A stretch of DNA of 64,000 nucleotides from Candidatus Alkanophaga volatiphilum (GCA_029259545.1 JAPHEE010000002.1:5601-69600); one strand, 5' to 3'; counted from the stretch's first letter, positions 3,623-54,908 are shown. Made by a program: numbers and translations. Notes: a model not told the origin generated them from the sequence alone.

Positions 3623-3662
3623 TTGGATGAAGAGTTTTTTGAAAGATTGCCACTTTTAATTG

Positions 3663-4490
3663 ATGCGTCGTGTTGAGGTCATTGGAATTGAAGGGATGCC
3701 GGAAATTAGACCCGGAGACGATCTCGCCGCCATTTTCTTAAAGGCTCTTCGGGAGAAAGACATTTTCCTCCAGGACTATGACGTCGTGGTTTTCGCCTCC
3801 AAGGTCGTTGCGAAGAGCGAGGGGCGGATCGTCGATCTTTCGGGCGTGAAGCCGGACGCCGCTGCGGAAAAACTCGCTGCCATTACAGGCAAAGATCCAA
3901 GAATCGTCCAGCTCATTCTCAACGACGCCGCCGAAATCATATGCGTCGGCGAGGACTTCATTCTTACGGAGACGAAACACGGCTTCATCTGCGCAAACGC
4001 CGGCATCGACGAGTCGAACGTCGAACACGGGAAGGCGGTACTGCTGCCCGAAGACCCTCAGAGGAGCGCAGCGGTGCTCCGCCGTAAAATAGAGGCGGCA
4101 ACCGGAAAGAAGATCGCAGTTCTGCTTGCGGACTCCTGCGGACGCCCCTTCAGGATCGGCGTCGCCGGTACGTGCGTTGGCTTCGCAGGAATGAAACCCA
4201 CGCTCGACAGGCGTGGCGAGAAGGACCGCTTCGGTAAGACCGCTAGGATCACGATCGTTGCGATCGCCGACGAAATCTGCGCGGCGGCGAACCTCGTCAT
4301 GGGCGAGCTTCAGGAGGGCATACCTGCTGTCATCGTCCGAGGACTGCGCTTCAAGCTTGACGAGGAGCAACAGAGTGTGAAGACGCTGTTCTTTGACAAA
4401 AGACGGGATGTGTTCAGAACTCTTGCTTGCAAACAACATTTTTTGGCGGTCAAAAATCTCCGTGAGGGTCAGAACACTCTCAAATCTTGA
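3663..4490 (+). CDS. cofE: coenzyme F420-0:L-glutamate ligase
   Basis: VVVFASKVVAKSEGR, FICANAGIDESN and LLADSCGRPFR are typical CofE motifs. Confidence 0.8.
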   Translation: MRRVEVIGIEGMPEIRPGDDLAAIFLKALREKDIFLQDYDVVVFASKVVAKSEGRIVDLSGVKPDAAAEKLAAITGKDPRIVQLILNDAAEIICVGEDFILTETKHGFICANAGIDESNVEHGKAVLLPEDPQRSAAVLRRKIEAATGKKIAVLLADSCGRPFRIGVAGTCVGFAGMKPTLDRRGEKDRFGKTARITIVAIADEICAAANLVMGELQEGIPAVIVRGLRFKLDEEQQSVKTLFFDKRRDVFRTLACKQHFLAVKNLREGQNTLKS

Positions 4491-4515
4491 CTGAGGTAAA
4501 AATTGTCAAAAAAGG

Positions 4516-5109
4516 TTAAGGGTGGCCGTGTGGCCACATCAGCGGGCGTGGCGGGATGCCCCTGTCGATGCCGGGACGCAGATCGAACTTCTTGGCGTAG
4601 TACTTGAAGTACGGGCTGTCCGTGTGCTGTGCGGTGTGTATCGAGTCTCTCAGGTCCATGAGCGCCGTGAAGTTCCCGATAACTGTGGCGGTGCCGTCGC
4701 AGACGGCGTCGGTGAGCGTGATCTCCCCGAGCAACGCCCGCACGAGCGTGTAGTAGCTGCGGAACGTCACAACGGCATCCACTTCTATGTTGGAGCCGGG
4801 CTCGGGGGCGCCCTGCACGACGGTTGCCGGCGACAACCTGAACCGCACGTACTCGACGCCCCGCTTCGGGTGCTTCGTCACTATGAGGATGGATCTGGGC
4901 GGGTACAACGACGTTTGCATCACCGTATCCGGGTCTGATGCCATCTTATTGATGAAGTAGTCGAAGAGCAGCTCGTAGAGCGTAGGCTCGTGGTCCTTGA
5001 GGTTAATCCACTCCACATCCTTCCACCAGCCGTCGGGCAGCGGCTTGGTCCTTTCAATTATATGCTCCTTCTCCGTCTCAGGGTAAATTTGTCCGAGTTC
5101 CTCCGCCAT
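4516..5109 (-). CDS. SCP2-like (sterol-carrier/alkyl-binding fold) protein occupying the mcrA slot
   Basis: Lies 9 nt downstream of mcrG-like 5119..6012 with its own AGGTGA Shine-Dalgarno sequence. The C-terminal part, DAVVTFRSYYTLVRALLGEITLTDAVCDGTATVIGNFTALMDL, resembles the SCP2 domain pattern. I see no similarity to McrA, McrC or McrD. Confidence 0.45.
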   Translation of the reverse strand: MAEELGQIYPETEKEHIIERTKPLPDGWWKDVEWINLKDHEPTLYELLFDYFINKMASDPDTVMQTSLYPPRSILIVTKHPKRGVEYVRFRLSPATVVQGAPEPGSNIEVDAVVTFRSYYTLVRALLGEITLTDAVCDGTATVIGNFTALMDLRDSIHTAQHTDSPYFKYYAKKFDLRPGIDRGIPPRPLMWPHGHP

Positions 5110-5118
5110 CTACATCAC

Positions 5119-6012
5119 CTACCCCTCAGGACTCGTCCGCTCTCTTGAGCCCGGGAGGAGCATCTCCGGCTCTATCCACTCTTCACCCTCGTTGATATAA
5201 AGCCCACCGTATTCTACGAGCGGCAGCTCGGGATTGTGACCCATGAGCACCCTACCAGCGGCAGCCCTGCCAAGCACCGTCAAAATCTCAGAGCGGCTCT
5301 TGTAGGGAGCGACGTCCCAACGGTAAGTGACGTCGTATGCCCGCAGCTCACGCTCGGTCAGCGGACGCCCTACTGGTATCGGGTTGTCGAGAACCTCGGC
5401 GTGCTGGTTCTTGATGTACTCGACCTCGCCTGTCTCTTTGTTTAGCATGTAACGGCGACGGGCGTCGAACATCAAACCGTCCTCGTCGAGACGAAGCGAA
5501 TGCCCGTGCACGGTAACGCCCCGAATGCCCACCCTAGCAGGGTCAAAGATGTGCGTCTCGATAAGCATCTTCGCCGCCTGCTCAAGGTCCCGCTCCCGCA
5601 TTTCAAGGAGCGTCCTTCCGGAGTAGACGACGGTGTCAATTCCTCTTAGCCTTGACATGTAAACACGAGCCCTAAGCCATGGTGCCATCGGCGGGTAATA
5701 CATGGAGTCGGCAAACTGGAGGAAACGCAAGCGGTCACCAGCCCTCGCTCCAGGTGTTGGCTCTACTATCTCCTTTATTGGATCGTACTTCTCGACAAGC
5801 TCATCTAGCGGTGGGTGTACGCTCACATAGGATTCGCCTTTGAATCTGTGCCCCAGAAGTTCCACAAGGCTGTCATCAGGAATGGAGCGGAACTTCGTGA
5901 GTCGCTTTGAGGAGTCCATTGCCCTCCTTCTGTTCGCCGACACCCTGTCAGGTCCCGGGTAGTACTGCCTCTTATACTTAACTTTCTTGACCTTCTTCTT
6001 AGCAGCCGCCAT
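5119..6012 (-). CDS. mcrG: methyl/alkyl-coenzyme M reductase gamma subunit-like (set 1)
   Basis: LLGHR, VHPPLDE, YSGRTLLEMRERD and HGHSLRLDEDGLMFDARRRY are typical McrG blocks. It carries an extra Lys-rich N-terminus (MAAAKKKVKKVKYKR) and a C-terminal extension. Confidence 0.85.
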   Translation of the reverse strand: MAAAKKKVKKVKYKRQYYPGPDRVSANRRRAMDSSKRLTKFRSIPDDSLVELLGHRFKGESYVSVHPPLDELVEKYDPIKEIVEPTPGARAGDRLRFLQFADSMYYPPMAPWLRARVYMSRLRGIDTVVYSGRTLLEMRERDLEQAAKMLIETHIFDPARVGIRGVTVHGHSLRLDEDGLMFDARRRYMLNKETGEVEYIKNQHAEVLDNPIPVGRPLTERELRAYDVTYRWDVAPYKSRSEILTVLGRAAAGRVLMGHNPELPLVEYGGLYINEGEEWIEPEMLLPGSRERTSPEG

Positions 6013-6026
6013 TTCGCACCCCTCTC

Positions 6027-7406
6027 TTAAACCTCATCCTTTATCTTCTCAGCAGCCTCAGCCACCCTCTTCATCGGGTTCCTAAATATCGGGAACTCTT
6101 GGGCTATTGTGAAGTACAAGCCCGAGGTCGTGGTAACCTTGAATATCTGCGTTCCGGCGTCAAGACACGCACACGCAGCCGAAATGGGCGTCAAGAAGCC
6201 AGACGTGTTCTTAACGATAACGTGGTCGCAGGAGAATGCGCCTGGGGCGGCGCCGCCGTAAAGACCGTGCGTGTAGAACACATAACCCTGCCCGCAGCCG
6301 AGCATGCGTCCAGCGTCTGGGTCTGGTAAGCCACAGGTCTCCCAGATGAGCATGTCCGGGAAGAATGCGATTACGCTCGCAACTCCTTGGACGGCACGGG
6401 CGGCAGCACAGTTAACAATAGCGGCAGCTGTCAGGCCTGCTATGGAATAAGCGTTCCACAGGCATAGGTCCGGTGCAGCCCACACAACTGCTCCCGAAGG
6501 CAATACCCATGGGTACTTGTCGCCCTTCTTTACTATCACACCGTCCTCAAGCGCTCTCTGCAGCATGCTCGTCATGACATCCCCAACAGTCCCTTTCGCA
6601 TTTTCCTTTATCAGATCAAGAACCAGACAATTTGCATTGAAGCCCTGATACGCCGACGTCAGGAGCATGTAACGCTCATACCAGCCGACATTGTAGCCCA
6701 TTTCTGCCGCCGCTCCTTGTTCAAGGATTGTACCTATGGCAAGCGCCCACATCGTCCGCATGTCAGCGAGCGCCGCAATGTGGTTGATCATTATGGACTT
6801 GAGTCCATTACCTAAGCCCTCCAGCTCTGAAGGCAGCTTCAAAAGCGGGCGAATTGGGTGCCCCGGCGGCGTCCCGACCGTCTGCGGATATCTACCCCAC
6901 AATGCCGACTTCACCAGTCCGATCTTGTACAAGTTCTCCAAGGGGTGCAAATTTGCTATTTTCGTTATTATCTGACCGAGTGCGGTCACAACTCTCGTAA
7001 ACGCTGGCGAAGTGTCATAAGAACGATTTAAGACTTCATCCGAGAGCTGGACTACGAGGATCGTACCGCCCTCAAGCACCCGTACCTCAGTCCCATCGTC
7101 GGGCCTCACCTGTAAGAGCTTGACAAGCTCATCTGCAATGTATTCGGCGTTATCCACGAGCTCGACATCGAAACCGTACCACGGCATCTTTATCTCGTCC
7201 TGCCCAACTATTGTGGACCAGCCAACTCTGCCCGTCCTGAGCATGTCCTCCAGCTTCTCAAGCTCAATGACTGTCGTCCTCTTCATGAACCTGTAAACCT
7301 CACCCATGTAGGGGTTCTTGTAAGGATGCAACGCCTCTATCGGTATGTCCTTTGCAAGCAGGTTCCCCTCATCGTCGTACAGGTCAACCTTGTCCTCGTA
7401 TTTCAT
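6027..7406 (-). CDS. mcrB: methyl/alkyl-coenzyme M reductase beta subunit-like (set 1)
   Basis: DKVDLYDDEGN, ERYMLLTSAYQGFNAN, FYTHGLYGGAAPG and CLDAGTQIF are typical McrB blocks. Full length at 459 aa. Confidence 0.85.
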   Translation of the reverse strand: MKYEDKVDLYDDEGNLLAKDIPIEALHPYKNPYMGEVYRFMKRTTVIELEKLEDMLRTGRVGWSTIVGQDEIKMPWYGFDVELVDNAEYIADELVKLLQVRPDDGTEVRVLEGGTILVVQLSDEVLNRSYDTSPAFTRVVTALGQIITKIANLHPLENLYKIGLVKSALWGRYPQTVGTPPGHPIRPLLKLPSELEGLGNGLKSIMINHIAALADMRTMWALAIGTILEQGAAAEMGYNVGWYERYMLLTSAYQGFNANCLVLDLIKENAKGTVGDVMTSMLQRALEDGVIVKKGDKYPWVLPSGAVVWAAPDLCLWNAYSIAGLTAAAIVNCAAARAVQGVASVIAFFPDMLIWETCGLPDPDAGRMLGCGQGYVFYTHGLYGGAAPGAFSCDHVIVKNTSGFLTPISAACACLDAGTQIFKVTTTSGLYFTIAQEFPIFRNPMKRVAEAAEKIKDEV

Positions 7407-7488
7407 CTCCTAACACCGCTCCATCTTTATGGCTCCTACCTCTTCATATTCAATCCATAATATTTAAATCTCACTATGCTAACTACGA

Positions 7489-7893
7489 ATGGGGGTGTTG
7501 TGCGTGGGTATAAGAATAGGCGATGTCGATCCTATAAAAATGCTCCTTGAGGGGAAGACGTCGTGCCTGTTTTGCGTGTACTACAACCCAGATGTGGGCT
7601 GCGATCGAATATACAAGCAGACGAGGGGCAGGATGAAAATAGACCTGTCAGATCCGTTAAACAAGACGTGCGACGCCTTCCAGCCGGCGATACGCTGCGA
7701 GGACTGCGTCCACTTCATGGTACAGAAGCTTGAAGAGGCGTTCGCAGGGCGTACCGAAAAATACATGTGCACGAAGCACGGGCTGGAGGATGCTGATATA
7801 AAGCTATGCCCTGATTATACCCCAAAAGAAGAGAAGAGAAAGGAGTTTGAGGAGCTTTATAAGAAGGCGGGCTTTGAGTTCAAGGTCGTCTGA
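7489..7893 (+). CDS. small Cys-rich hypothetical protein
   Basis: CLFC...C...C...CEDC...C...C pattern. The stop lies 2 nt before the start of the radical SAM gene. Divergent from mcrB set 1. Confidence 0.45.
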   Translation: MGVLCVGIRIGDVDPIKMLLEGKTSCLFCVYYNPDVGCDRIYKQTRGRMKIDLSDPLNKTCDAFQPAIRCEDCVHFMVQKLEEAFAGRTEKYMCTKHGLEDADIKLCPDYTPKEEKRKEFEELYKKAGFEFKVV

Positions 7894-7895
7894 TA

Positions 7896-9362
7896 ATGAG
7901 GATGGAAACGAAATCGTTGTGCCCGGAATGTCTCAGCGTGATTCCGGCGGAAGTTTACGAAGAGGGCGGGAAAATTTTAATAAGGAAGAGGTGCGAGGAG
8001 CACGGCGAGTTCGAAGACATTTACTGGGCGGACGCCGAGCTTTACAAAAGGTTTTCTGCATTTGAGAGCGTAGGCAAGGGTTTTGCGACGAGGGCGGCGG
8101 AGCGTGGCTGCCCCTACGATTGCGGGCTCTGCCCCGCACACAAGACGACGACGCTCCTTGCGAACATCGACGTGACGAACCGCTGCAATCAACGATGTCC
8201 GACGTGCTTTGCGAATGCCGCCGCCTCCGGTCGCCTTTACGAGCCCTCGCAGGACGAAATTTGGAAGATGCTCGAGGTTTTGCGCTCTGAGGTGCCGCCG
8301 TGCCCCGCCGTGCAGTTTGCGGGCGGCGAGCCGACCGTCCGTAGCGACTTCGTGGAGCTCGTTAAGATGGCAAAGAAGCTCGGCTTCGCCCAGATACAAG
8401 TGGCGACGAACGGCATCATGCTTGCGAAAAGCGTGGAGTTCTGCGAGCGGCTTGTGCATGCTGGACTTCATACCGTCTACCTGCAGTTCGATGGCGTCAA
8501 GGAGGAAGCTTACGAGAAATTAAGAGGGCGGAGGGTGTTGAAAACTAAGTTAAAGGCGGTTGAAAACTGCAGAGCTGGCGGGATAAGGAGCGTAGTGCTC
8601 GTGCCGACGCTCGCAAGAGGAGTGAACGACGATCAGATCGGCGACATCATCAGATACGCCGTCGAGAACCTAGACGTGGTGCGGGGGGTGAACGTCCAGC
8701 CCGTGTCCTTCACGGGCAGAATTGATAAAAGCGAGCTCCGCAAGCTCAGGATTACGATCCCCGACTTCATAAAGCTCGTGGAGGAGCAGACCGATGGGCA
8801 GATCCCCAAAGAAAGCTTCTACCCCGTGCCCGCAGTCGTTCCGGTGTCGAGGTTTGTCGAGGCGTGGAAGGGCGAGCCGCAAGTAGCCTTCACGGTGCAC
8901 CCACACTGCGGCGCCGCTACTTACGTGTTCGTCGACGGTAAACGGCTTATCCCTATTACAGACTTTGTGGATGTCGAAGGTATTCTTGAGTTCTTGAAGG
9001 AAAAGGCGGAAGAGCTGGAGCGGGCGAGATTGCCGGCGCTTGCGAAGCTGAAAGTTGCGATAAGCGCAGCGAAGCAGATCAACAAGTTCATAGATGCCGA
9101 AAAGGCGCCGAGTGGTGCGGAATCCATGCGCAAAGTTATCGACATTCTGACAAGAGGTGACAGAGAGTCAACGGCGGAGTTCCACCGCCGTACGCTGTTC
9201 ATCGGTTGCATGCACTTCATGGATCCCTACAACTTCGATATCAAACGTGTGCAACGCTGTGGCATACATTACGTGACGCCTGACCTCCGCATCATTCCGT
9301 TCTGTACCTACAACACCTTGCATCGTCCTGAAGTCGAAGCGAAATTTAGCAGGACGTTGTAA
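7896..9362 (+). CDS. radical SAM enzyme of the MJ0619 / tetraether lipid synthase (Tes, GDGT-MAS) family
   Basis: N-terminal Zn ribbon CPEC...C. Also GCPYDCGLCPAHK, DVTNRCNQRCPTCFA (CxxxCxxC), QFAGGEPTVRSD, RITIPDFIKLVEEQTDG and a C-terminal CMHFMDPYNFD...RCGIHYVTPDLRIIPFCTYN. Confidence 0.75.
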   Translation: MRMETKSLCPECLSVIPAEVYEEGGKILIRKRCEEHGEFEDIYWADAELYKRFSAFESVGKGFATRAAERGCPYDCGLCPAHKTTTLLANIDVTNRCNQRCPTCFANAAASGRLYEPSQDEIWKMLEVLRSEVPPCPAVQFAGGEPTVRSDFVELVKMAKKLGFAQIQVATNGIMLAKSVEFCERLVHAGLHTVYLQFDGVKEEAYEKLRGRRVLKTKLKAVENCRAGGIRSVVLVPTLARGVNDDQIGDIIRYAVENLDVVRGVNVQPVSFTGRIDKSELRKLRITIPDFIKLVEEQTDGQIPKESFYPVPAVVPVSRFVEAWKGEPQVAFTVHPHCGAATYVFVDGKRLIPITDFVDVEGILEFLKEKAEELERARLPALAKLKVAISAAKQINKFIDAEKAPSGAESMRKVIDILTRGDRESTAEFHRRTLFIGCMHFMDPYNFDIKRVQRCGIHYVTPDLRIIPFCTYNTLHRPEVEAKFSRTL

Positions 9363-10640: not shown

Positions 10641-10719
10641 GAAAATGGGTGGGGCGGCGGCACTTAAAGACGCTCGTTCGAAAAAGTAATATGAGGGCTT
10701 AAGGGAACAACACAAGGGC

Positions 10720-11823
10720 ATGAACGGTTGCGGCGTCAGCGTGATCATCCCCGTATACAGAGGCTCCGAGCTTCTCGACGACCTTTTACGCAGCCTGATG
10801 GAGCAGAGCGTGCGGGCAGCGGAGGTCATCGTCGTTGCCGACGAACCCACCGAGGAGACGTTAAACACCGTGCGAAAATACCCTGTGAAACTCATCGTGA
10901 ACGAAAACAGGCGTGGGAAGGCTCATGCTTTGAACGCCGGCGCAAGAGAGGCGAGAGGCGACATTTTGGTGTTCCTTGATGCTGATACTAAGATAGAAAG
11001 GGATTTCTTGGAAAACGTCGTAGAAGAGATGAAAAGCAGCCCCATATTGGATGTCAAGAAGAAGATTTTGTGCAGCGGGCTGCTTTCGAGACTTGTAAAC
11101 ATTGATTATTTCAACATGTACATCTCGTCGTTCTTCTCAACAAGATTTGGCACATGCATGGGTCTAAATGGCGCATGCATCGCGGTGAGGAGAGAATACT
11201 TCTTCAAGCTCGGAGGTTTTAGGCGGACGATCACCGAAGATGTCGATTTCGGCATCCGAGCAGCAATGGGCAAAGTGCGGGTGAAGACTTCAAAAAAAGC
11301 TTGCGTTCTCACCCAGTCGCCACAAAGCTGGCGTGCATGGTACAAGCAGCGAGAAAGATGGGCGCTCGGCGGCTCTTTATGCATACTTGAGTACTTCAAT
11401 TACATAGTAGGGAAGCCCAAGGTCTGGACTCCCATCCTAATAATGCACTATCCCGCCATGATACACTTCTTCGCATCTGCGGTGATTCCTGACGCCTTGG
11501 CGTGCAAACTGCTCTCTTTTATCATTCTGACGCTCTTCCTGCTGAAGCTCCCAGCGCTGGCACTCCCTGTGATTTTCATCCTTTCTTTTGGACTCATCGT
11601 ATTGAAAGGCCTGCTCGCCGCACTGATAACGTTCTCGGTGTGGGCGTGCGCAACCGCTTTAGGCTTCAGGATCACAAAATGGGGCGATGTTAAACCCTAC
11701 GACTTCTTGGTATACTACTTCATATACTCGCCTCTTTGGCTCTTTATAAGCATCAAGAGCTTTGCCAAGGCGAGCGTGGCAATGCTTGGTAAAGAAATAA
11801 AAGTGAAAGATTGGAAGGTGTAA
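10720..11823 (+). CDS. family 2 glycosyltransferase with C-terminal TM helices
   Basis: VSVIIPVYRGSELL, VFLDADT and a QRERW-type motif. Confidence 0.75.
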   Translation: MNGCGVSVIIPVYRGSELLDDLLRSLMEQSVRAAEVIVVADEPTEETLNTVRKYPVKLIVNENRRGKAHALNAGAREARGDILVFLDADTKIERDFLENVVEEMKSSPILDVKKKILCSGLLSRLVNIDYFNMYISSFFSTRFGTCMGLNGACIAVRREYFFKLGGFRRTITEDVDFGIRAAMGKVRVKTSKKACVLTQSPQSWRAWYKQRERWALGGSLCILEYFNYIVGKPKVWTPILIMHYPAMIHFFASAVIPDALACKLLSFIILTLFLLKLPALALPVIFILSFGLIVLKGLLAALITFSVWACATALGFRITKWGDVKPYDFLVYYFIYSPLWLFISIKSFAKASVAMLGKEIKVKDWKV

Positions 11824-19115: not shown

Positions 19116-20294
19116 ATGGAAAAAGTATGTGACGTGCTCGTTGTAGGTGCAGGACCTGCAGGGAGCAGTGCAGCGAGAGCTGCGGCAAGATTTAGAGCTA
19201 GAACCGTGTTCATAGACAAGAAAGAGGAGATAGGCGTACCGGTGCAGTGTGCAGAAACCATAGGCAAATACTTGCTCCCGCTCCTACCATTTAAGATACC
19301 GAAGGACCAACTAGTATGGAAGATCAAGGGGATGACCTTCTGGGCGGAAGGCATAAAGATAACGCGCCAGGGACGGTTCTGGGCGGGCTATGCGATAGAC
19401 AGGAAGAACTTTGACAAGTGGTTAGCATCTCTCGCTGTGAGGGCAGGTGCGGAGTTGCAAACGAGCGCCGAACTCGTGGATTTGGAAGTGGACGACAAAT
19501 ACAAAGTCAAGAGAGCGTACGTACGAACGCCACATGGCGTGATATCCATTAGACCAAAGGTAGTGATTGCCGCAGACGGCGTCGAATCCTCCGTTTTAAG
19601 GCTATTGGGCTTCAAAATAAACAAAAAGGAGAACTTAGGGGAGGTCTTGGGCTTTGAAATGCGAAACTTGAACTTGGAGAAGCCCAACTACGATCATTTG
19701 TTCCTCGGAGACTTTGCGCCTGGCGGCTATGCATACATATTCCCAAAGTCGAAACATGCGGCAAATGTGGGCGTCGCCACGCTCTTCCCAAGCAAGAGTT
19801 TGGAAGAATACTACGAGGAATTTTTGGAGATCCCGGAGGTCAAGAGGCAGCTGGATGGGGGGGTCGTGGTTGAGGAGAAGAGCGGGAAGGTCCCAGCTCG
19901 CAATCTAGTTGATAGGTGGGTTTACGGGAACGTGCTTCTTGCGGGCGATGCTGCCAACCAAAACATCAAGCCGTTCGTAGAAGGCATCCTCCCGTCCGTT
20001 ATTTGCGGCGATATTGCCGGAAGGGTCGCCGCTGCCGTCGTGAAGGGAGTAGGCTTGATAGACACCTATCCTAAGAGAGTAAAAATGAAGCTAGGTAGGC
20101 TCCTTAAAAGATCTAATGCAGTCATGAGCGTCAATGATAGCTTATTTAGACAAGGTGCTAAGGGTGCTCTTCTGAGTTTATGCCTATTAGCTGAAGTTGT
20201 TCCCCTGAGAGAGATAATAAAATTGGGAGAGGAAGAATATACTTCAGTTAAGAGATATATAGAAGATCTGAGCGTCCGATGGGGATCTAAATGA
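19116..20294 (+). CDS. FAD-dependent oxidoreductase, geranylgeranyl reductase family
   Basis: DVLVVGAGPAGSSAA dinucleotide fold, AADGVESS and LLAGDAANQ. Confidence 0.75.
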   Translation: MEKVCDVLVVGAGPAGSSAARAAARFRARTVFIDKKEEIGVPVQCAETIGKYLLPLLPFKIPKDQLVWKIKGMTFWAEGIKITRQGRFWAGYAIDRKNFDKWLASLAVRAGAELQTSAELVDLEVDDKYKVKRAYVRTPHGVISIRPKVVIAADGVESSVLRLLGFKINKKENLGEVLGFEMRNLNLEKPNYDHLFLGDFAPGGYAYIFPKSKHAANVGVATLFPSKSLEEYYEEFLEIPEVKRQLDGGVVVEEKSGKVPARNLVDRWVYGNVLLAGDAANQNIKPFVEGILPSVICGDIAGRVAAAVVKGVGLIDTYPKRVKMKLGRLLKRSNAVMSVNDSLFRQGAKGALLSLCLLAEVVPLREIIKLGEEEYTSVKRYIEDLSVRWGSK

Positions 20295-23200
20295 TATACT
20301 TGGGTAGTGACGTGTTAGGGCCCATAACGTTATTTGTCACAATAAACGTTTTCATCCTTTCCCTTATACTAACGTCCATACTTGAGGCAAAGAGGAAAAC
20401 GAGCTCAGGATTGTGGAACGACTTGCTCTTAGGAACATGTTTTTACATAGTGAAGACGGGAATTATAGGAATAATACTAACGCGCCTACCAGACACCTAC
20501 AAGTTGATGCTTATCATCCTCCCATATTCCACAGCCACGACATGCGTGTTTTTCGTACATTATTTGATAATAAAACCGTTGTTAAGAGAGATAAAGTTCA
20601 TGAAGCCTGAATACATGAGTTTTTATGCAATATTTACAGCGATATATTGGATAACTTTCGTCAAACTTGCTCCAATTGTAAGCTCTTTTACTTTTACACT
20701 TAAAGCTGCTCCAGTCATATACATATTTATTGCGCTATACTTGTTCATAGTACTATACGTGATTCGTTACTTTATAGCACTATTTGATAATTATCGAAGG
20801 ATAGGATTTTTAGAGAAGCCAGCATTGTTAGCGGCAGTTAGTTTGATACCTGTGATTGCATACTCTGTATCTCTAGTTATAATGTGTGACATACACTCAT
20901 ACTATCATTTGCTATCAGGCTGGATAATCTGTTTTGCAGTTACCGTGGTGAGTTACTTCCGCTTTGCTGTCGAATATCCCTCCCTCCTCCAACCCAAGTG
21001 GAAAGCATACATGCCTTTCGACCCTGTGAAGATGACCGCCGCTCTGACCATGGCGTTTCTTGCGGTTTCCGCTTACTTCACCGTGATGGAGCACGGCACG
21101 CCGCAGTTCCTCAGCATGCTGCGCTCCGCATTTCTACCGCTTCTCGTGCTGCTTGCTGCCATCTTCACGGAGGTCGCTATCATTCTGACGTTTCTCAAGA
21201 ATTTCGCCGCCGGGACGGCGCTGAAATACTGGCATCTGCTGAAGAGCGGCTTGTATATACACATCGCAGCCACGCTATATGTATTTTGCCTGATGTTCTT
21301 ACTTTGGAATGGCATCTCCGCATACGAGCGACTGCTATTCGTGATATTCGCCATCGCCACGTTCGCCTTCTACCTCTTCTATGCGCTGGATCTCAAAACT
21401 CTTTTATCATACCAAGGGATCGAGCCGACGTTCAGCAAGCTGGATATTGCCAGATACTTCGTCTGCCTTTACTCCGCATTTTTCTTCATCCTCTTCAGTT
21501 TGAATTTCACGTACGGCAGGACATCTCTTTACGTGAATCTCGAGTCTCGCCCTGCAATCCTGTTCTTCATCCTCTTTTTCATGACATCTTTCGGCACATA
21601 CCTCAGCATGTCGCATAAGGGCTACGAGGAGGTACTGCGGAAGAACATATGGAGCGAGCTTTCTTACGTCTCGGCGTTCGGCGCCGCCGCCGTAGTTTAC
21701 GCAATATACAGCTCCGTAGCCGCAGTACGGAGCTTCCCCCTCAGAGACCTCTTCTTCGTCGGCTATTTCCTCGTGCTGCTCATCGAAATACTTTCGACCG
21801 CAATGCTCCGCCGTGCCTATAGATGGTATGAGCGAAGAGCGGAGGCAAAAGACATTGTGGAGCTTTTGAACCGTTATGCTCTTGCCTTCTTGCGGGTTGA
21901 TTTCTTGAAAGAAATCTGGGAAAAAATCGTGGACAAATACGTCCCGCAGGACAAGCAGCGATATGTGAGGTTCGACGCATCGTCCCGCACGTTCCGCATA
22001 GACTTGGATGAGAAAACACGAACGACGGTTGCGGTTGCCATGTTGCTTGAAATGTTCCGCAGCCCGCCGCCAAGAGCGACAACTGAGGAAATACCACCGG
22101 AAAGGGTTAAAGCCGAGACGAAGAGTGTGTTGAAAGAGAAGGTTTTAGTGTTACCTGAGGAATTGATGCACGAGTTGGGGGAGCCTTCGGAATATTATCC
22201 GCTGTTGTACCTGAAGACGCTCCGGGACTTGGAGGGACGGCTTAGGGTTTTCATTCCTGAGTTCCATCTCGATACGTTCTTCGAAAGACTGGCAAACATA
22301 AACCCCGCTTTCAGGGAAGTCTCTATTAGGGAGGAGGAATACGACGGCTCGTCCTATGAGCTGCCAGAGGGGCTACGCTTCCAGAGAGACGACTTCCTGA
22401 GGTATTTCAAGCTGTTTGTGAGGGCGGTGGAAGAGCGCTTCCCATTCAGGTATTCGCTGCTCTACGATGCTGTTAAGAAGAAAGTGAGGGAAGAACTACA
22501 CCTTTACGGCTTCACGCTGAGCGAGCTGCTGGACGTGGTCCTCACTGGAATCAACGGGATAGACAACGTACTAGGCGGGCTTGTAAAGAACAAATCTACC
22601 CTGCTTCTAGCTGAGGATTCGAAGGCCAAGAACAGAATGCTGGTAGCATTCGCAGCTCAAGGGCTGAAGGATGGCGACGGCATCATCTTTGCAAGCTCTA
22701 AGCGTGCTTCTGAGGAAGTTTTGGACGACTTGGAGATGAGCTTGAACACTTTTATCGACGGCGGCGTCATGATGATAGACCTGTATCGGGCGACCCACAC
22801 CGACAAACCGCCAAGCTCCCTCATTGAAGAAAAGCACAGACTGATAGTGCCTTTAAACAAGACGCTCATCCAACACGGCATCGTCAAATCGGTAAAAGCG
22901 TACCCCAAGGAGCTCCATAAGAGAATGGTGCTGGACATATACGATGACCTCTTGAAGTATTACAACTTTAACGAACTTTTCGCAATACTAGAAAGACAAC
23001 TCGACGGCTTCAAACGTTGGAACTGCACGACTTTCGTAACACTGAGCCAGAGGTCGGTATCGGTAGCAGAGCTTGAAAAGCTGGAGAGAGTATTTGATAA
23101 CGTGTTTGTTCTACGTGGTAGGGATGTAGATGCAAAGCTTTTCATCGAAAAGCTTTATGGAGGCGTACCCTCAGGCGTGAGGGAAATACCGGTAGTGTAG
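20291..23200 (+). CDS. large polytopic membrane protein with C-terminal degenerate RecA/KaiC-like domain
   Basis: About 470 N-terminal residues of hydrophobic helices. The C-terminus, GINGIDNVLGGLVKNKSTLLLAEDSKAKNRMLVAF...GIIFASS, has a KaiC-like layout, but the GxxGxGKT P-loop is replaced. The 5' ~700 nt are AT-rich. Confidence 0.55.
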   Translation: MIYLGSDVLGPITLFVTINVFILSLILTSILEAKRKTSSGLWNDLLLGTCFYIVKTGIIGIILTRLPDTYKLMLIILPYSTATTCVFFVHYLIIKPLLREIKFMKPEYMSFYAIFTAIYWITFVKLAPIVSSFTFTLKAAPVIYIFIALYLFIVLYVIRYFIALFDNYRRIGFLEKPALLAAVSLIPVIAYSVSLVIMCDIHSYYHLLSGWIICFAVTVVSYFRFAVEYPSLLQPKWKAYMPFDPVKMTAALTMAFLAVSAYFTVMEHGTPQFLSMLRSAFLPLLVLLAAIFTEVAIILTFLKNFAAGTALKYWHLLKSGLYIHIAATLYVFCLMFLLWNGISAYERLLFVIFAIATFAFYLFYALDLKTLLSYQGIEPTFSKLDIARYFVCLYSAFFFILFSLNFTYGRTSLYVNLESRPAILFFILFFMTSFGTYLSMSHKGYEEVLRKNIWSELSYVSAFGAAAVVYAIYSSVAAVRSFPLRDLFFVGYFLVLLIEILSTAMLRRAYRWYERRAEAKDIVELLNRYALAFLRVDFLKEIWEKIVDKYVPQDKQRYVRFDASSRTFRIDLDEKTRTTVAVAMLLEMFRSPPPRATTEEIPPERVKAETKSVLKEKVLVLPEELMHELGEPSEYYPLLYLKTLRDLEGRLRVFIPEFHLDTFFERLANINPAFREVSIREEEYDGSSYELPEGLRFQRDDFLRYFKLFVRAVEERFPFRYSLLYDAVKKKVREELHLYGFTLSELLDVVLTGINGIDNVLGGLVKNKSTLLLAEDSKAKNRMLVAFAAQGLKDGDGIIFASSKRASEEVLDDLEMSLNTFIDGGVMMIDLYRATHTDKPPSSLIEEKHRLIVPLNKTLIQHGIVKSVKAYPKELHKRMVLDIYDDLLKYYNFNELFAILERQLDGFKRWNCTTFVTLSQRSVSVAELEKLERVFDNVFVLRGRDVDAKLFIEKLYGGVPSGVREIPVV

Positions 23201-24874
23201 TCACCTTGACGGTATGATGGGGTTGCGTTCGCCGGCGGGCATGAACTCGCGGAGGGCGCCGCGGGCGATGCACGCCCTTATGTTTCGGAAGTCGAAGACG
23301 AGGTCGGGGTCGGCGAACGCCACCTTTATCACCGGCGACAGCCCCCACGCGTCCATCCGCGCCTCGTGCGCCGCAACGACCGCCGGCGACGTGAAGAACT
23401 GGGAGTCTGCGAGGTAGGAGCGGAACGGGACGTTCGGTCCGTGGAGTTCGACGGGCATGCCCTCGTCGATGAGCACCGACGGCAGGATGCCGAACGAGTT
23501 GTGGTGGTGCGTCTCCTGCCCGCCCCAGCCCGTACGCAGCAGCAGCTCCTTGTGGATCAGCGTCAGAGCGTGATGAGCGGCGAGCGCCCCCGCATACGCA
23601 CTGCCGGTCGCCCATGCGGCGCAGACGCCCGCCATCATCGCGATGAACAGGTTTTTGATGAGTCCCCAGTGGTGCTCCAAGAGCACGGGGTATTTGTCGT
23701 AGTCCTCGCAGCAGTGGAGCACCGCCTCCCGCGCGCACTCGTGGATCACGTCCCAGCCCGGCGACACGCCCGCAAAGCCGTACCTGTCACGAACCCACCC
23801 CGCAAGGTGCTCGCCCCAGCCCTCGAACGTCTCGTTGAGGTAGTACACGGAGGCGCCGACGGTGACGCCGACCGACCCTATCATCTGCTGCCCGTAGTAC
23901 CACTGCATGTACAGGACTTTTTCGAGGGCGACGCCCTCCGCCGTCACCGGGACTGGCGATTCTGGCATTTTCGAGGGGTGCTGCACGATGTCGAAGATGT
24001 AGCCGCACGGGAGTCCGACGGGGTTGTTGTGCCCGTGCGCCCGTGAGGGGAACGGCGGGGTTCCGATGAACACGTACTGGGCGTGCTTCGCCGAGAAAGC
24101 GAAGTCTGAGATGGTGGACTCGCCGGCGCAGAGGCGGTAGGCGGCGATGAACGCCATGGTTTGCGCCATGGCGTTCCAGCGGTGCACCATGGCGCCGTCC
24201 ATGCTCCGTATTGCGTGCGTCGGCAGCCTCGAGACCTGCCAGAGGGAGGCGCCGACGCCTTTTTTGAGCTTTGCCGCCCTCTCGGCGTCGAACTCGCGGT
24301 CGATGTCGATGAGGAAGCGTCTGTCGAGCTTTGATGCGAGCTCGTCGCTGCCGGTGAAGGTTTTGACGTAGGCGTCCGGGGCGAGGGCGGGGTTGACCTC
24401 CACCATGTGCTCTTGGGCGACGGCGCCGCCGACGAGCGTGTGGTTTATGGTTTCGAGGTAGATGTTGATGGTTTCGGGGGTGACCTCGCGCCCGTAGCGG
24501 TTCGTGAGCACGCGGTGCGGCAGATCCAAGCACGTGATCGCCGTCCTGAAGATGTCGTCGCGGAGCTGCTGCATCGCCGCGTTGTTCAGCACGTGCAGGT
24601 CCTCGTACTCGCAGAGCACATCCGTCCCGCTCACCCGCACCGGCTCCAGAAACCGCTCGCCCACCGGGACGCCCAGCCCCAGCTCGTCACAAATCCGATC
24701 CGGATTGTACGACGGGATCCCCCGCCCCTCCGCTATCCTGCGAGCCGCCTCGATAAACTCAGACTTCCGCCTCGACTGACGACGACCCCCGTACTTATGA
24801 AACTTCGAGTCTTTAAGCTCCGACGGCAAGACTCCGTACGTCTCCTCAAGAATCTTTAAAAATTTCTTCTCCAT
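23201..24874 (-). CDS. mcrA: methyl/alkyl-coenzyme M reductase alpha subunit-like, divergent (set 2)
   Basis: NNAAMQQLRDDIFRT, REVTPETIN, GGAVAQEHMVE, AKHA and DEGMPVELHGPN are McrA blocks. The substrate-channel blocks are substituted (see findings). Confidence 0.85.
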   Translation of the reverse strand: MEKKFLKILEETYGVLPSELKDSKFHKYGGRRQSRRKSEFIEAARRIAEGRGIPSYNPDRICDELGLGVPVGERFLEPVRVSGTDVLCEYEDLHVLNNAAMQQLRDDIFRTAITCLDLPHRVLTNRYGREVTPETINIYLETINHTLVGGAVAQEHMVEVNPALAPDAYVKTFTGSDELASKLDRRFLIDIDREFDAERAAKLKKGVGASLWQVSRLPTHAIRSMDGAMVHRWNAMAQTMAFIAAYRLCAGESTISDFAFSAKHAQYVFIGTPPFPSRAHGHNNPVGLPCGYIFDIVQHPSKMPESPVPVTAEGVALEKVLYMQWYYGQQMIGSVGVTVGASVYYLNETFEGWGEHLAGWVRDRYGFAGVSPGWDVIHECAREAVLHCCEDYDKYPVLLEHHWGLIKNLFIAMMAGVCAAWATGSAYAGALAAHHALTLIHKELLLRTGWGGQETHHHNSFGILPSVLIDEGMPVELHGPNVPFRSYLADSQFFTSPAVVAAHEARMDAWGLSPVIKVAFADPDLVFDFRNIRACIARGALREFMPAGERNPIIPSR

Positions 24875-24887
24875 CCCGGCAACCCTC

Positions 24888-25661
24888 CTATTTCCCGTTT
24901 ATTAAGTCGGGTCTAAGCCCACCCAGCACCCGCAGCTCGCCTATCCGCTTCACGACCTTCATAAGCTCGTCGGCGACGGTCGGCGGCACGTGATCGAAGC
25001 GATAGACGGTCGCCATCTTCTTAAGCTCCTCTTCAGGTAGCGGCGGACCCACAGGCACTGGCTCCTCAAGCGGCACGGACTGCTGCGTCTTCACGTAGAC
25101 GACCTCACCCCGCTCCTTGTCGTATATATAACGGCGGCGGGCGTCGAACATCAAACCGTCCTCGTCGAGACGGAGCGAGTAGCCGTGGACGGTGATCGAA
25201 CGCAGAGCGCAGCGTGCCGTGTCGAACATCTCAGTCTCCAGCAGCGTCTTCGCCACCCGGTCGATGTCGCGCTCCCTCATTTCGAGGAGCGTGCGCCCTG
25301 AGTACGCAAGGGAGTCAAAGCCCCGGAATTCTCTGTTCGTCGCATATATCCGGAAGCGGAGCCACGGCGGCAGCGGCGCAAAGTGCTGAGAGTCCGTAAA
25401 CTGAATGTAACGGATGCGGTCGCCGTGTCGGGCACCGTCGGTGGGCTCTACAAGCTCCTTTATCGGGTCAGGCGGCTCCTTTATCTCATCTAATGGGGGA
25501 TGTACGCTAGAGTATGCCATTCCTGGCTTCCTGTGCCCCAAAAGCTTCACTATGTCGTCATCTGAAATCTCTCTCAGTTTCTTAGGCTTAAAATCCGGGT
25601 CAAGCCATTTGCGACGACGCTCCGCAATCTCATCAGTACCTGGATATGGAATTCCTACCAT
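24888..25661 (-). CDS. mcrG: methyl/alkyl-coenzyme M reductase gamma subunit-like (set 2)
   Basis: LLGHR, VHPPLDE, YSGRTLLEMRERD and HGYSLRLDEDGLMFDARRRY. Confidence 0.88.
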   Translation of the reverse strand: MVGIPYPGTDEIAERRRKWLDPDFKPKKLREISDDDIVKLLGHRKPGMAYSSVHPPLDEIKEPPDPIKELVEPTDGARHGDRIRYIQFTDSQHFAPLPPWLRFRIYATNREFRGFDSLAYSGRTLLEMRERDIDRVAKTLLETEMFDTARCALRSITVHGYSLRLDEDGLMFDARRRYIYDKERGEVVYVKTQQSVPLEEPVPVGPPLPEEELKKMATVYRFDHVPPTVADELMKVVKRIGELRVLGGLRPDLINGK

Positions 25662-25670
25662 CTTACCACC

Positions 25671-27032
25671 TCACAACTTATCTTTAATCTCAGAGGCAGC
25701 CTCCGCCACGTATTTTATCGGCTGTTTCATCTCAGGCGGTAGTACGTCCCTTATCTTCATGTAGACTCCTGATGTCAGCTCCGGCGTGAACGTCTGTGTC
25801 CCGGCATCCATACACATCCCGGCGACGATACATGGCGCTATGAAGCCCCGTGAGTGTCTGAGTAACGGACCTGCTGGCGCATAAGCGCCAGGACCGGCGC
25901 CGCCGTATATGTTGTGCGTGTAGAAAGCGAAACCTATCGAGGTCCCGAGCACACGCCCGAAATCTAGGTCAGGTAGCCCCGTTGCCAACTTTATTATGTC
26001 GTTAAAAGCGTTTATCGTCGCCGGGGCGCCCTGCACTGCTCGCATAGCGCCGCAATTCACAATCACGGCGGCGAGTTGTCCTGCTGCCATATAGGCATTC
26101 CACAGGCAAGCGTCGTCGGTCTTGTAGATCTTAAAGCCTGACGGAAGTGTCTCCTTGACTTTGATCACGCCGTCTTCTTCAGCTCGTCTTATCAGGCTAA
26201 GAATCACGGTACCTATCGTACCGTCCTTCCCGTTTTCCTTAACAAGCTCGTATACCAAGTTATTTGCATTCAATCCCTGATACGCAAGCCTTAACAGATG
26301 ATAGCGCTCGTAAACCGGATGGATGGCGTCGCCGCTGTCGAACATCGCCAGCGTCTCGAGGATCGCAGAAAGCGCCACGCCGTTAAGCGTGTTCTTATTA
26401 GTGATGGCTACGATGTCGTTCACCATGTTCGTACGGAACGCAAGACCGACGCCGTCGAGCGCCGGCGGCCAGCCGCGTAACAGCCCTGTGACGGCGCCGC
26501 GCAGCGTTATCGACTGTGGATACCTGCCGAAAATTGCCGACTTTATCACGTTGGAGCCGTTGAACGGTGTTATGTTGAAAAGCTCGATAATGGCGTGCGC
26601 CGTCGCGACTCCGACGTTCACGGTCGCAGAAGCCCAATCGCTCGCCATGTACATTCGGAGGGTAGGCACCTGCACAAACAGAATTTCGCCACCACCGAGC
26701 ACATGCACGCTCGTGTCGTCATCGTCGCTCACCCGCACGTACCTATCAACAAGCTCGGCGATCTTCTCGGCGTTCTCTACGATCGGGAGGTCGAGCTCGA
26801 TGCCTGGGATTTGACACTCCTCGCCGACGCCCATTTCTCCACCCATGCGTCCGGAGCGTAATGAATCCTCAATCCTCCTCAAATTCACGATCACTGAACG
26901 CTTGAACGTTTCACAAATCTTCTTTATCGCCGGGTTATGCAGCGGGCTTATCGCGTCCAGCGGAATATCTTCCGCAATCCGCTCGCCCCGCTCATCGTGT
27001 AGGTCTATCCTATCTGGATGCCTAACAGCCAT
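25671..27032 (-). CDS. mcrB: methyl/alkyl-coenzyme M reductase beta subunit-like (set 2)
   Basis: [40 protein letters not shown] and CMDAGTQTF. Confidence 0.88.
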
Positions 27033-27188: not shown

Positions 27189-28412
27189 ATGGGGATAAAA
27201 ATAGCCCAAGTATCTTGCGGGACGGTTTACGGCAACGTGCAACATGAGATCGAGGCGGCGGCAAGAGCCGTCGGCGCCGAGATTTTCGTGCCTGAAGTCT
27301 CTCTCGATTATGCTCGCGACAAAGAGAAAGAATTCGGGTTCGACGTGCGGAGCGAGGGTCTAAGGATCGCGTTGGCAAGGGGCTACGCCGTCGCCGAGGG
27401 TCTTTGCGACGCCGACGCCGTGTTCATCGCAACCTGCCACAAGTGCTCACGGGGCGCCATCGTCAGGACGGAACTGAGGAAGATAATACAGGAGAGGGCG
27501 GGGCTGCCCGTGGTCATGTATCCATTTACGGAGAGGACGAAAGCCGGCGAGCTGCTGACGCGGATGGAAGCGTTGGTGACGATCGTCACGAAGCGGCACA
27601 TCTTGGAGCGTAACAAGCAGGAGGGGCTGACTGCAGGCATAGATTCGGGCTCGACGACGACGAAGGCGGCGATCATGCAGGACGACGAGGTCCTCGGCGC
27701 CTTCTGGACGCACACCACCGACCCGGTTAAGACGGCAGAGAAGGTTTTTGAGGAGGCGTTAAAGCGGGCGGGCGTCCGCCGTGAGGAAATAGAGGCGTTA
27801 GGCACCACGGGCTACGGGCGGCACATCGTCGGAAAGCACTTCAAGGCGGATCTCATCCAAGAGGAGCTGACGGTGAACTCGAAGGCTGCGATGTATCTGG
27901 CTGGGCTTTTGAAGGGCGATTGCATGGTCGTCGACATCGGCGGCATGGACAACAAGATAATAACGGCGAGGGACGGCATCCCCGACAACTTCACGATGGG
28001 CGGGATTTGCGCCGGGGCGTCGGGACGCTTCCTCGAGATGACCGCACGGAGGCTCGGCGTGAGCGTCGAGGAGCTCGGGAAGCTCGCGCTCGCCGGCAGC
28101 CCCGAGAAGGTGAAGATGGACAGCTACTGCATCGTCTTCGGCATTCAGGACTTGGTGTCGGCGTTGTCAAGGGGCGCCCGCCGCGAAGACGTCGCCGCCG
28201 CCGCCTGCTACTCCGTCGTCGAGCAGGTCAAGGAGCAGCTGCTGCAGGAGATCGACCTGAGGCAGCCCGCCATCGAGGTAGGAGGGACGGCGCTCGTCGC
28301 CGGCGTCCCGAAGGCGATGAGCGACGTCTTGGGCTTCGACGTCATCGTGCCGAAATACCCGCAGTATATCGGAGCGATCGGCAGCGCCCTGCTGGCGTCG
28401 TCGTTTAGATAA
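27189..28412 (+). CDS. BadF/BadG/BcrA/BcrD-type ATPase, methanogenesis marker protein 15-like
   Basis: The N-terminal ~140-aa domain starts MGIKIAQVSCGTVYGNVQHEIE. It is followed by an acetate/sugar-kinase-fold ATPase with GIDSGSTTTKAAI and VDIGGMDNK. Confidence 0.65.
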   Translation: MGIKIAQVSCGTVYGNVQHEIEAAARAVGAEIFVPEVSLDYARDKEKEFGFDVRSEGLRIALARGYAVAEGLCDADAVFIATCHKCSRGAIVRTELRKIIQERAGLPVVMYPFTERTKAGELLTRMEALVTIVTKRHILERNKQEGLTAGIDSGSTTTKAAIMQDDEVLGAFWTHTTDPVKTAEKVFEEALKRAGVRREEIEALGTTGYGRHIVGKHFKADLIQEELTVNSKAAMYLAGLLKGDCMVVDIGGMDNKIITARDGIPDNFTMGGICAGASGRFLEMTARRLGVSVEELGKLALAGSPEKVKMDSYCIVFGIQDLVSALSRGARREDVAAAACYSVVEQVKEQLLQEIDLRQPAIEVGGTALVAGVPKAMSDVLGFDVIVPKYPQYIGAIGSALLASSFR

Positions 28413-28620: not shown

Positions 28621-28896
28621 GTGCTGCAGAAGACTTGGAAAAAGTATCACAGTGACGAAGCCGTCAAGGCGTTCCTCCTGCACCACATTTTGGACTATAC
28701 TGCCACACCACCTTACTCTTTTAAATCTCGTGAGTTACCTGATCAAAGCTTAAAGGAGGAAGCTGAAACACTGTTAGAAAGAGAGCTGAAAAATGTAGTC
28801 CTTAAGGCATGTGAGGAAATAAGGGGGCTTTTAGGGTGCATGGGAAAGGAAATTCTCTCTGACATAATGCCTGAAATGGGCGAGTGGTTTGAATAG
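28621..28896 (+). CDS. hypothetical protein, possibly the 3' part of a frameshifted small gene starting at 28457
   Basis: A 42-codon ORF at 28457-28585 (MPSWKIHDKWAAV...FHDHRES) is followed in another frame by ...KAFLLHHILDY.... No family recognised. Confidence 0.3.
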   Translation: MLQKTWKKYHSDEAVKAFLLHHILDYTATPPYSFKSRELPDQSLKEEAETLLERELKNVVLKACEEIRGLLGCMGKEILSDIMPEMGEWFE

Positions 28897-28985
28897 CAAA
28901 ATGAAACTTGATTTTGGCAATTAAAATTAGAAATAGAACCCCTGAAAGTGCAAAGAGACTTTGCTTGAAATGTAGGGGTTCTCCC

Positions 28986-29795: not shown

Positions 29796-29804
29796 TTCAA
29801 GTTT

Positions 29805-32112: not shown

Positions 32113-32118
32113 CTCAAG

Positions 32119-52624: not shown

Positions 52625-52633
52625 GGTGTTGCA
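52607..52633. repeat. left arm of 27-bp imperfect inverted repeat bounding the AT-rich cassette
   Basis: GGTTCTGTTGAA-TCTTA-GGGTGTTGCA matches the reverse complement of 55036-55062 at 24 of 27 positions. Confidence 0.85.
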
Positions 52634-52650
52634 TTTGTGATGTTGCAAGT

Positions 52651-54632: not shown

Positions 54633-54853
54633 TCTTTCTCCTCCCTCACCTTTAGGGGTTTAACTACTATAATTAATTCTCCACCTTCAGCCCTAATCTC
54701 CCAATTAAGCTTATCTCCTTCTGAAAGATTAAACTGCTTAACAATGCCCATAGGTATTGTGGTTCTTAATGATTTACTCTTTGATGTTGCTCTAGTGATT
54801 ACGGTAGTCTCCCCCATCTTCTTATCACCTGTTATAATTATAGGTAAAATCAT
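54629..54853 (-). CDS. AbrB/SpoVT-family small DNA-binding protein
   Basis: SLRTTIPMGIVKQFNLSEGDKLNWEI. Its stop overlaps the methyltransferase start (ATGA). Confidence 0.65.
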   Translation of the reverse strand: MILPIIITGDKKMGETTVITRATSKSKSLRTTIPMGIVKQFNLSEGDKLNWEIRAEGGELIIVVKPLKVREEKE

Positions 54854-54908
54854 TTATAAAGCTTTTGGTCTAAGATTTTACCGAAAGATTTAAATATGTA
54901 AATATCCA

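Follow-up and report, generated by a model that had tools for sequence, protein, structure and literature searches.

An SCP2-fold protein encoded beside the beta and gamma subunits of an alkyl-coenzyme M reductase in Candidatus Alkanophaga volatiphilum is a candidate carrier of alkyl chains

We analysed 64,000 nucleotides of DNA from Candidatus Alkanophaga volatiphilum (GCA_029259545.1, contig JAPHEE010000002.1, positions 5601-69600; hereafter the window, whose own numbering is used below), focusing on three genes of its minus strand that encode, in order of transcription, a beta subunit (B1, gene acrB) and a gamma subunit (G1, gene acrG) of an alkyl-coenzyme M (alkyl-CoM) reductase (Acr), and a protein of 197 residues that we call X. 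The explanation we favour, with a probability of about 60%, is that B1 and G1 are subunits of an Acr whose alpha subunit is encoded remotely, and that X, the 3' member of the unit, has the fold of sterol carrier protein 2 (SCP2) and carries an alkyl chain. Judged by gene order in related archaea, X is a conserved 3' accessory gene stranded beside acrG, and no stand-in for the alpha subunit. The elements of the unit, together with the second acr set of the window, are the following.

7461 to 7468, minus strand: TATA-box-like TTTAAATA, read from the sequence, a candidate archaeal promoter of the acrB-acrG-X unit
6027 to 7406, minus strand: acrB, beta subunit of set 1, OD814_000158, 459 residues, Pfam MCR_beta_N and MCR_beta
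5119 to 6012, minus strand: acrG, gamma subunit of set 1, OD814_000157, 297 residues, Pfam MCR_gamma
4516 to 5109, minus strand: X, 197 residues, would be OD814_000156, an open reading frame (ORF) with an SCP2 fold in its AlphaFold2 (AF2) model
4498 to 4513, minus strand: T-rich tract (T6 at 4513-4508, T5 at 4502-4498), read from the sequence, a candidate oligo-T terminator
3660 to 4490, plus strand: cofE (F420-0:gamma-glutamyl ligase), Pfam F420_ligase 4e-77, the 3' boundary of the unit
23201 to 27032, minus strand: acrB-acrG-acrA of set 2, OD814_000177-175, a complete paralogous set by Pfam matches

The unit is compact, with spacers of 14 nt between acrB and acrG and of 9 nt between acrG and X, and a purine-rich, GGTG-type Shine-Dalgarno-like motif stands ahead of each start (GAGGGGTG at 6024-6017, GGTGAT at 5118-5113). 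A mis-called start for acrG or X was considered and rejected; that of X is not mis-called, because an in-frame TAG lies immediately 5' of it. The TTTAAATA box is found ~55-60 nt 5' of the acrB start, inside an 82-nt divergent intergenic region, while the T-rich tract, coming right after the stop codon of X, is a candidate terminator of the archaeal oligo-T type. Tight spacing, one promoter-like and one terminator-like element together suggest that X is co-transcribed with acrBG. The convergent cofE ends 25 nt from the X stop, and neither the ORFs nor Pfam reveal an alpha-subunit gene in the unit. A preliminary description of this DNA had already proposed such a layout (three co-oriented genes with these spacers and Shine-Dalgarno motifs, full-length McrB-like and McrG-like products, cofE next on the opposite strand and no alpha in the operon), and ORF calling and the Pfam matches bear it out.

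Both subunits look like complete members of their families. B1 matches PF02783 MCR_beta_N (4.4e-35, residues 5-197) and PF02241 MCR_beta (1.4e-76, residues 199-452) end to end, and its residues 1-459 align with solved McrB chains; its score of 382 bits against TIGR03257, the canonical McrB equivalog, falls under the 516.25-bit cut-off, so that it appears to be a divergent, Acr-type beta subunit rather than a canonical Mcr beta. G1 matches PF02240 MCR_gamma (2.3e-94, residues 15-259) and TIGR03259 (291.6 bits against a cut-off of 172.1 bits), and aligns end to end with solved gamma chains of methyl-CoM reductase (MCR). Within a conserved SGR motif, R133 of G1 corresponds to R120 of the M. marburgensis gamma subunit (a numbering carried from MCR II to MCR I by alignment offset), which we take to be a contact of the CoM sulfonate. 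In the phmmer alignment to 1hbm_B, F377 and Y383 of B1 correspond to F361 and Y367 of the M. marburgensis beta subunit, presumably the channel residues of Ermler et al. 1997. Both proteins are under strong purifying selection when compared with those of A. liquidiphilum, the ratio of non-synonymous to synonymous substitution rates (dN/dS) being 0.053 for B1 and 0.027 for G1.

Identity to the set-2 proteins of the same window is 41% for beta and 54% for gamma, in agreement with the preliminary description, which had put the two beta subunits at well under half identical. Identities to the B/G proteins of X-linked operons elsewhere (loci are cited by L numbers) are 71/80% for L002, 59/73% for L008 and 59/74% for L014, and on these alignments the orthologues of B1 and G1 are the beta and gamma subunits of complete operons such as L014. 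Gamma does have the Lys-rich tail at its N-terminus and the extension at its C-terminus that were remarked on at the outset; the former is 14 residues long (MAAAKKKVKKVKYK, 5971-6012), and the latter runs ~38 residues past the Pfam domain. Comparable Lys-rich tails are seen in L002 (MAVGEKKKKRKY, 1577-1620) and in A. liquidiphilum (MAAAKKKTA..., L005 9091-9130). Because the tail is common to the whole X-linked gamma clade, it characterises this Acr type in general, as a conserved trait, and is not particular to the gene.

The likely partner of B1 and G1 is a lone AcrA, OD814_000515, encoded on contig 6. Zehnle et al. 2023 (PMC10322722) reported that both Alkanophaga species have three Acrs and that the most expressed acrA (cluster-3) is encoded apart from its acrB and acrG. 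The source data to Extended Data Fig. 3 of that paper place acrG at 10719-11612 and acrB at 11627-13006 of contig 2, with the set-2 acrA, acrG and acrB at 28801-32632, and for these five acr genes the published coordinates equal window positions plus 5600. Published FPK values from the hexane culture are, for alpha, gamma and beta in turn, 2753 (OD814_000515), 1312 and 1015 in set 1; 761, 430 and 366 in set 2; and 363, 477 and 335 in set 3. By these values B1 and G1 are the most expressed of the three beta/gamma pairs, and among the alphas the lone acrA ranks first, which fits the pairing. The Alkanophaga lone AcrA and the alpha subunit of L014 both belong to a group of long AcrA proteins whose identity to the Syntrophoarchaeum lone AcrA is 48-61%; for the AcrA of window set 2 the figure is only 38%. 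We consider the pairing of B1 and G1 with OD814_000515 strongly indicated by these comparisons.

The separation of acrBG from acrA is real and functional, and it is already known; since it has been published, it adds nothing by itself. The preliminary description had allowed for an alpha subunit encoded elsewhere, correctly, although this was on record for the very genome, and it erred in holding that canonical and Acr-type operons keep A together with B and G. Elsewhere, S. butanivorans has four acr sets, one of which does not form an operon (Laso-Perez et al. 2016, cited in PMC9081873). For the identical contig-2 locus the table in PMC10322722 holds acrG and acrB only, and the gene that follows, X, is neither listed nor discussed.

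Could B1 and G1 instead act without any alpha, in a function other than that of an Acr and with X as their partner? We regard this as very improbable, since beyond the local order acrB-acrG-X without acrA, which recurs in L002 and L008, nothing speaks for it, whereas a cognate, orthologous alpha of similarly high expression is encoded elsewhere in the genome, B1 and G1 have their orthologues in complete operons, and the channel residues that they would share with alpha are conserved. Moreover, neither beta nor gamma is known to carry a cofactor site by itself. The earlier suggestion of a beta-gamma module recruited to a different function is opposed by the orthology, by the conserved channel and CoM residues and by purifying selection.

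A chimeric contig, or a decaying remnant after loss of acrA, deserves even less credence. Nothing beyond the absence of acrA would call for it, and identical arrangements occur in at least six independent assemblies or species: acrB-acrG-X is found again in L002, L005, L006, L008 and L017, and acrG-X-cofE in L004. GC content is continuous across the region, the ORFs are intact with dN/dS of 0.03-0.08, and published expression is high; recurrence, GC continuity, coding integrity, selection and expression together effectively refute an artefact. The thought that an acrA might lie just beyond an assembly break also fails, as no acrA stands there next to the operon.

X itself matches no Pfam or NCBIfam family and fails the gathering threshold of PF02036; its best weak Pfam match is Alkyl_sulf_C (E 0.02, with 15.5 bits where the cut-off is 27). 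When 20 relatives were scanned singly, seven matched Pfam SCP2 (E up to 5, best 2.3e-8) and seven Alkyl_sulf_C, likewise a domain of SCP2 fold. The AF2 model of X, built on 25 homologues (pLDDT 87.8, pTM 0.85), contains helices (H) and strands (E) at H44-56, E72-80, E84-92, E96-99, E112-116, H119-126, E141-145 and H147-164, and in a Foldseek search against the PDB all 38 matches at E<=1e-3 were of the SCP2 fold (E 1e-5 to 1e-3, TMt 0.58-0.73). They comprise SCP2, SCP2-L, UbiJ-SCP2 (TMt up to 0.73) and alkylsulfatase C-domains, the match of highest identity (23%) being the alkylsulfatase SdsA1 with decane-sulfonate. An earlier AF2 model on five sequences (pLDDT 58) gave the same fold answer. 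According to the predicted structure, X is an SCP2-fold protein in which a five-stranded sheet packs on helices and the SCP2 core covers approximately residues 44-165; the SCP2 pattern that had been read from the sequence at the start is upheld. The sequence profile of X, set against PDB chains, returned chance matches at E>1 only.

X is no recognisable fragment of McrA, nor is it McrC or McrD: BLASTP of X against the window AcrA gave at best 28 residues at E 0.039, no MCR_* Pfam family (MCR_C and MCR_D included) was found among 20 X-family members at E<=5, and no Mcr chain is among the top Foldseek matches. With the SCP2 superfamily (PF02036; UbiJ/UbiT; SdsA1, PF14864) the modelled X shares the alpha/beta fold and a G-x-x-x-x-G-N / 'LLGE' signature. 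Unlike members of that superfamily it fails both Pfam models, carries an N-terminal extension and an RPxxWPxGHP tail, and is a stand-alone protein in archaeal acr operons, with a ligand-binding capacity that is a prediction.

The family is small. Close homologues of X number four among 5.8 billion clusters, an exhaustive HMMER search with a profile yielded 15 clusters (E<=1e-3) from 1.84 billion representatives, and a profile from a widened alignment found 23 proteins, the named ones coming from Syntropharchaeia, Helarchaeota and 'Lokiarchaeota'. A metagenome scan with our alignment A1, whose patterns reach only close relatives of X on genome contigs, added two further X loci only. The 15-cluster result suggests that X is missing from Ethanoperedens, Bathyarchaeia, Methanoliparia and Hadarchaeota. 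Family members have ~45 extra residues at the N-terminus with a conserved LPDGWWK..DWI..(D/E)EP motif, further conserved motifs (HPxRGxE; EPD; DYYDL..LLGE; G....GN.TA..D..D), and a C-terminus ending in conserved RPxxWPxGHP, while E41, R72, H80, E86, E109, D111, N146, D152, D155 and R188 are invariant polar or charged positions. X is under purifying selection (dN/dS 0.08 against A. liquidiphilum). Our literature searches returned no paper that describes X or links SCP2/sterol carrier proteins to Acr, to a fourth subunit or to Helarchaeota operons; a preprint on Asgard lipid transfer was examined and proved unrelated to X. The X family is a previously undescribed SCP2 variant dedicated to acr operons.

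This dedication is seen in gene neighbourhoods. In 14 of 14 distinct neighbourhoods examined X lies beside acr genes or beside the MCR activation component A2, and by this sampling it is linked to one type of acr operon in two archaeal phyla, Syntropharchaeia and Asgard Helarchaeota. The arrangements are as follows.

acrB-acrG-X: window, L002, L005, L006, L008, L017
acrG-X-cofE: L004 (contig cut within acrG)
acrA-X-U32(-DUF5402): L001, L003, L007, L018
MJ0093-acrB-acrG-acrA-X-A2, the Helarchaeota type: L009, L010, L020
acrB-acrG-U1-U2-acrA-X-Mmp3: L014
ABC ATPase-X: L019

The ABC protein next to X is component A2 (TIGR03269, 664 bits) and the DUF8179 protein found beside X is Mmp3 (TIGR03268). 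In the complete operons that we examined (L009, L010, L014 and L020), as in the Syntrophoarchaeum-type loci, X is placed 3' of acrA. The simplest history that we can infer has the ancestral order acrB-acrG-(U1-U2)-acrA-X. In the Alkanophaga lineage the segment U1-U2-acrA, which would have stood between acrG and X, seems to have been cut out, with the consequence that X now abuts acrG; Syntrophoarchaeum would have split acrBG off from the rest, and X therefore stayed beside acrA. It is the alpha segment that left and X that kept its place, as X follows acrA in complete operons, and of the initial label 'SCP2-like gene in the alpha position' the first part stands and the second misleads, since the normal place of X is after acrA. 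This reciprocal synteny (X is found beside acrBG in Alkanophaga and beside the lone acrA in Syntrophoarchaeum, and L014 has it together with both) has not been described previously, and it provides independent genomic evidence that the beta/gamma pair serves the dominant AcrA.

L008 (3059-12833, GCA_030605385.1) has acrB-acrG-X without acrA, followed by Mmp3 (DUF8179), DUF2113 and McrC, and further on a second mcrB with mcrA right behind it and no gamma gene in between, an unusual B-A order. From this layout the alpha segment may have departed the operon more than once, or early.

Two further proteins, U1 (~375-500 residues) and U2 (~117-183 residues), are in every case encoded just 5' of the cluster-3-type acrA, and in L014 between acrG and acrA (L011 5040-6641, L007 6382-8064, L014 4560-6494, L015 5516-6999). 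They precede the lone acrA in Alkanophaga (L011-13), in S. butanivorans (L007/L018) and in other Syntropharchaeia (L015/16), the order being U2-U1-YcaO-acrA in Alkanophaga and U1-U2-acrA-X-U32-DUF5402 in S. butanivorans. Neither belongs to a Pfam or NCBIfam family, and by position they are a second undescribed Acr-linked gene set. In Syntrophoarchaeum-type loci X is also accompanied by genes for a divergent member of the Peptidase_U32 family and for a DUF5402 protein (L007 10613-12026, L001 977-2756, L014 534-2283), which in L014 are placed upstream of acrB in the opposite orientation. These U32 proteins have eight invariant cysteines, including NEGCLYxCPFR and CxxxCxRCxFC, and are homologous to M. 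kandleri MK0906 (5d88, E 1.7e-21); they have no NCBIfam assignment, and their Pfam match is partial only.

According to the mechanism that we propose, B1 and G1 would be the beta and gamma subunits of the principal, highly expressed Acr, with OD814_000515 from the other contig as alpha, and the three would assemble into an ordinary (alpha-beta-gamma)2 enzyme that activates C5-C14 alkanes to alkyl-CoM. The predicted hydrophobic SCP2 tunnel of X would hold an aliphatic chain, either of the alkane or, more likely, of the surfactant-like alkyl-S-CoM, and X would shuttle this ligand between Acr and the next enzyme of the pathway, its conserved N- and C-terminal motifs acting as docking elements. 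Alkyl-CoM is favoured as ligand because, being an anionic surfactant, it is similar to the alkyl sulfates and sulfonates that alkylsulfatases bind, because the alkylsulfatase SCP2-like domain is both the best sequence-level and the highest-identity structural match of X, and because the enzyme that accepts alkyl-CoM is still unknown: for the conversion of alkyl-CoM to acyl-CoA, Table 1 of PMC11543930 gives the enzyme as '?'. Our confidence in the ligand and carrier role, which draws on the modelled fold, is moderate to weak; given fold and linkage, we put a carrier of alkane or alkyl-S-CoM to or from Acr at somewhat less than even odds.

Several points weigh against this explanation. OD814_000156 (X) is absent from the Alkanophaga supplementary tables that we examined, FPK values included. 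The substrate of S. butanivorans is butane, a small gas that dissolves fairly well and would seem to have less need of a carrier. The U32 gene that follows X in Syntrophoarchaeum-type loci, or A2 in Helarchaeota, fits other roles of X equally well. The invariant polar residues, too, exceed what a passive lipid carrier would need and could mean catalysis, metal binding or a protein interface; because a passive carrier leaves them unexplained, rival roles of X stay alive.

One such role follows the U32 neighbour. X could be a UbiT/UbiJ-like factor that offers a substrate of hydrophobic character to an Fe-S enzyme of the U32 family, which could hydroxylate alkyl-CoM on the way to acyl-CoA, or could modify a cofactor or a McrA residue. 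UbiU and UbiV are O2-independent hydroxylases of the U32 family, and in the UbiT-UbiU-UbiV system of anaerobic ubiquinone synthesis in E. coli, as in Syntrophoarchaeum-type loci, an SCP2-fold gene adjoins a Cys-rich U32 gene. Peptidase_U32 and DUF5402 come directly after X in L001, L003, L007 and L018 (in L014 they stand divergently upstream of acrB), the eight cysteines and the MK0906 homology would suit such an enzyme, and the best Foldseek matches of X include UbiJ-SCP2 structures. Unlike UbiT-UbiU-UbiV, however, the archaeal loci have one U32 gene with DUF5402 and no UbiU/UbiV pair, and organism, pathway and context are all different. No U32, DUF5402, U1 or U2 gene is present in the 64-kb window, there is no U32 or DUF5402 beside the lone acrA of Alkanophaga, Helarchaeota operons carry X without an adjoining U32, and the family assignment of the U32 proteins is incomplete, as noted above. 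We think this role unlikely, and hold in similarly low expectation the more specific idea that X, U1/U2 and the Cys-rich U32/DUF5402 proteins form machinery taking alkyl-CoM from Acr toward acyl-CoA, in which X would be a dedicated chaperone handing the thioether to an O2-independent U32-type hydroxylase that attacks the sulfur-bound carbon.

X might otherwise be an McrD-like assembly or activation factor, chaperoning apo-Acr or its F430-type cofactor, or taking part in ATP-dependent reductive activation. Like McrC and McrD of canonical mcrBDCGA operons, X is encoded by a small, non-catalytic gene in a reductase operon and could serve assembly or activation; it lies between acrA and A2 in the Helarchaeota type and before Mmp3 in L008 and L014, L008 goes on with DUF2113 and McrC, X-bearing acr operons lack mcrC and mcrD, and a protein interface is suggested by the strictly conserved terminal motifs and the large number of invariant polar residues. 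X differs from McrC, McrD and the activation-complex proteins in both sequence and fold, with all of the top 38 Foldseek matches falling to SCP2; its gene closes the operon on the 3' side, instead of lying between B and G, and was found in Acr-type operons only. The SCP2 fold typically binds aliphatic ligands, not tetrapyrroles. Separate mcrC and mcrD genes, moreover, are present and expressed in Alkanophaga (PMC10322722 data). Taken together, a role in assembly or activation seems doubtful to us, and an alkyl-chain carrier attached to an Acr with a remote alpha is still the reading that we prefer.

A locus from a population closely related to that of the window (L017, JGI Ga0209411_100082) is 98-100% identical to the window at the nucleotide level across acrB, acrG, cofE and the flanks. 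Inside X (window 4563-5012; L017 6317-6910) identity is only 83-89%, and dS between the two is 0.49 for X against 0.03-0.04 for acrB and acrG, with an X dN/dS of 0.08. The pattern suggests that X alone was exchanged for another allele by recombination, and does not look like relaxed or positive selection.

Divergent from acrB, a Cys-rich protein of 134 residues without a family match is encoded at 7489-7893 (plus strand), directly followed at 7896-9362 (plus strand) by the gene for Tes, a tetraether lipid synthase (NF045702, 715 bits). In A. liquidiphilum (L005) acrB is flanked by this pair as well; the small gene encodes 133 residues there, and synteny is identical: Tes, the 133-residue gene, acrB, acrG, X and cofE. 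cofE neighbours the unit in L004 as well as in L005.

Flanking the set-2 acrBGA genes (19116-23200 and 27189-28412) are genes for a FixC-like flavoprotein, for an activator ATPase of the BcrAD/BadFG type (YjiL) and for a protein of 969 residues that contains a KaiC-like ATPase domain. In the published table (PMC10322722) set 3, too, has FixC as a neighbour, and the FixC-bearing flank of set 2 may be an Acr-associated redox or activation module. Two islands of the window, 29805-31514 and 52000-56300, have a low GC content (0.41-0.45 versus ~0.55 elsewhere). One encodes a GmrSD-type restriction endonuclease (569 residues) and the other an N6_N4 DNA methylase (53715-54632) beside unannotated ORFs. 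Defence or mobile elements probably account for both islands.

To our knowledge, heterologous expression of Acr enzymes has been difficult. Such enzymes have been studied by this route in methanogens (for example PMC9584954 and PMC9081873). The hand-over of alkyl-CoM and its oxidation to acyl-CoA form the main unknown step of archaeal alkane oxidation (PMC11543930). Constrained in sequence, of a carrier fold and linked to Acr, X is a concrete candidate for the handling of substrate or product in this pathway, and would be of high interest to Acr specialists if its role were confirmed.

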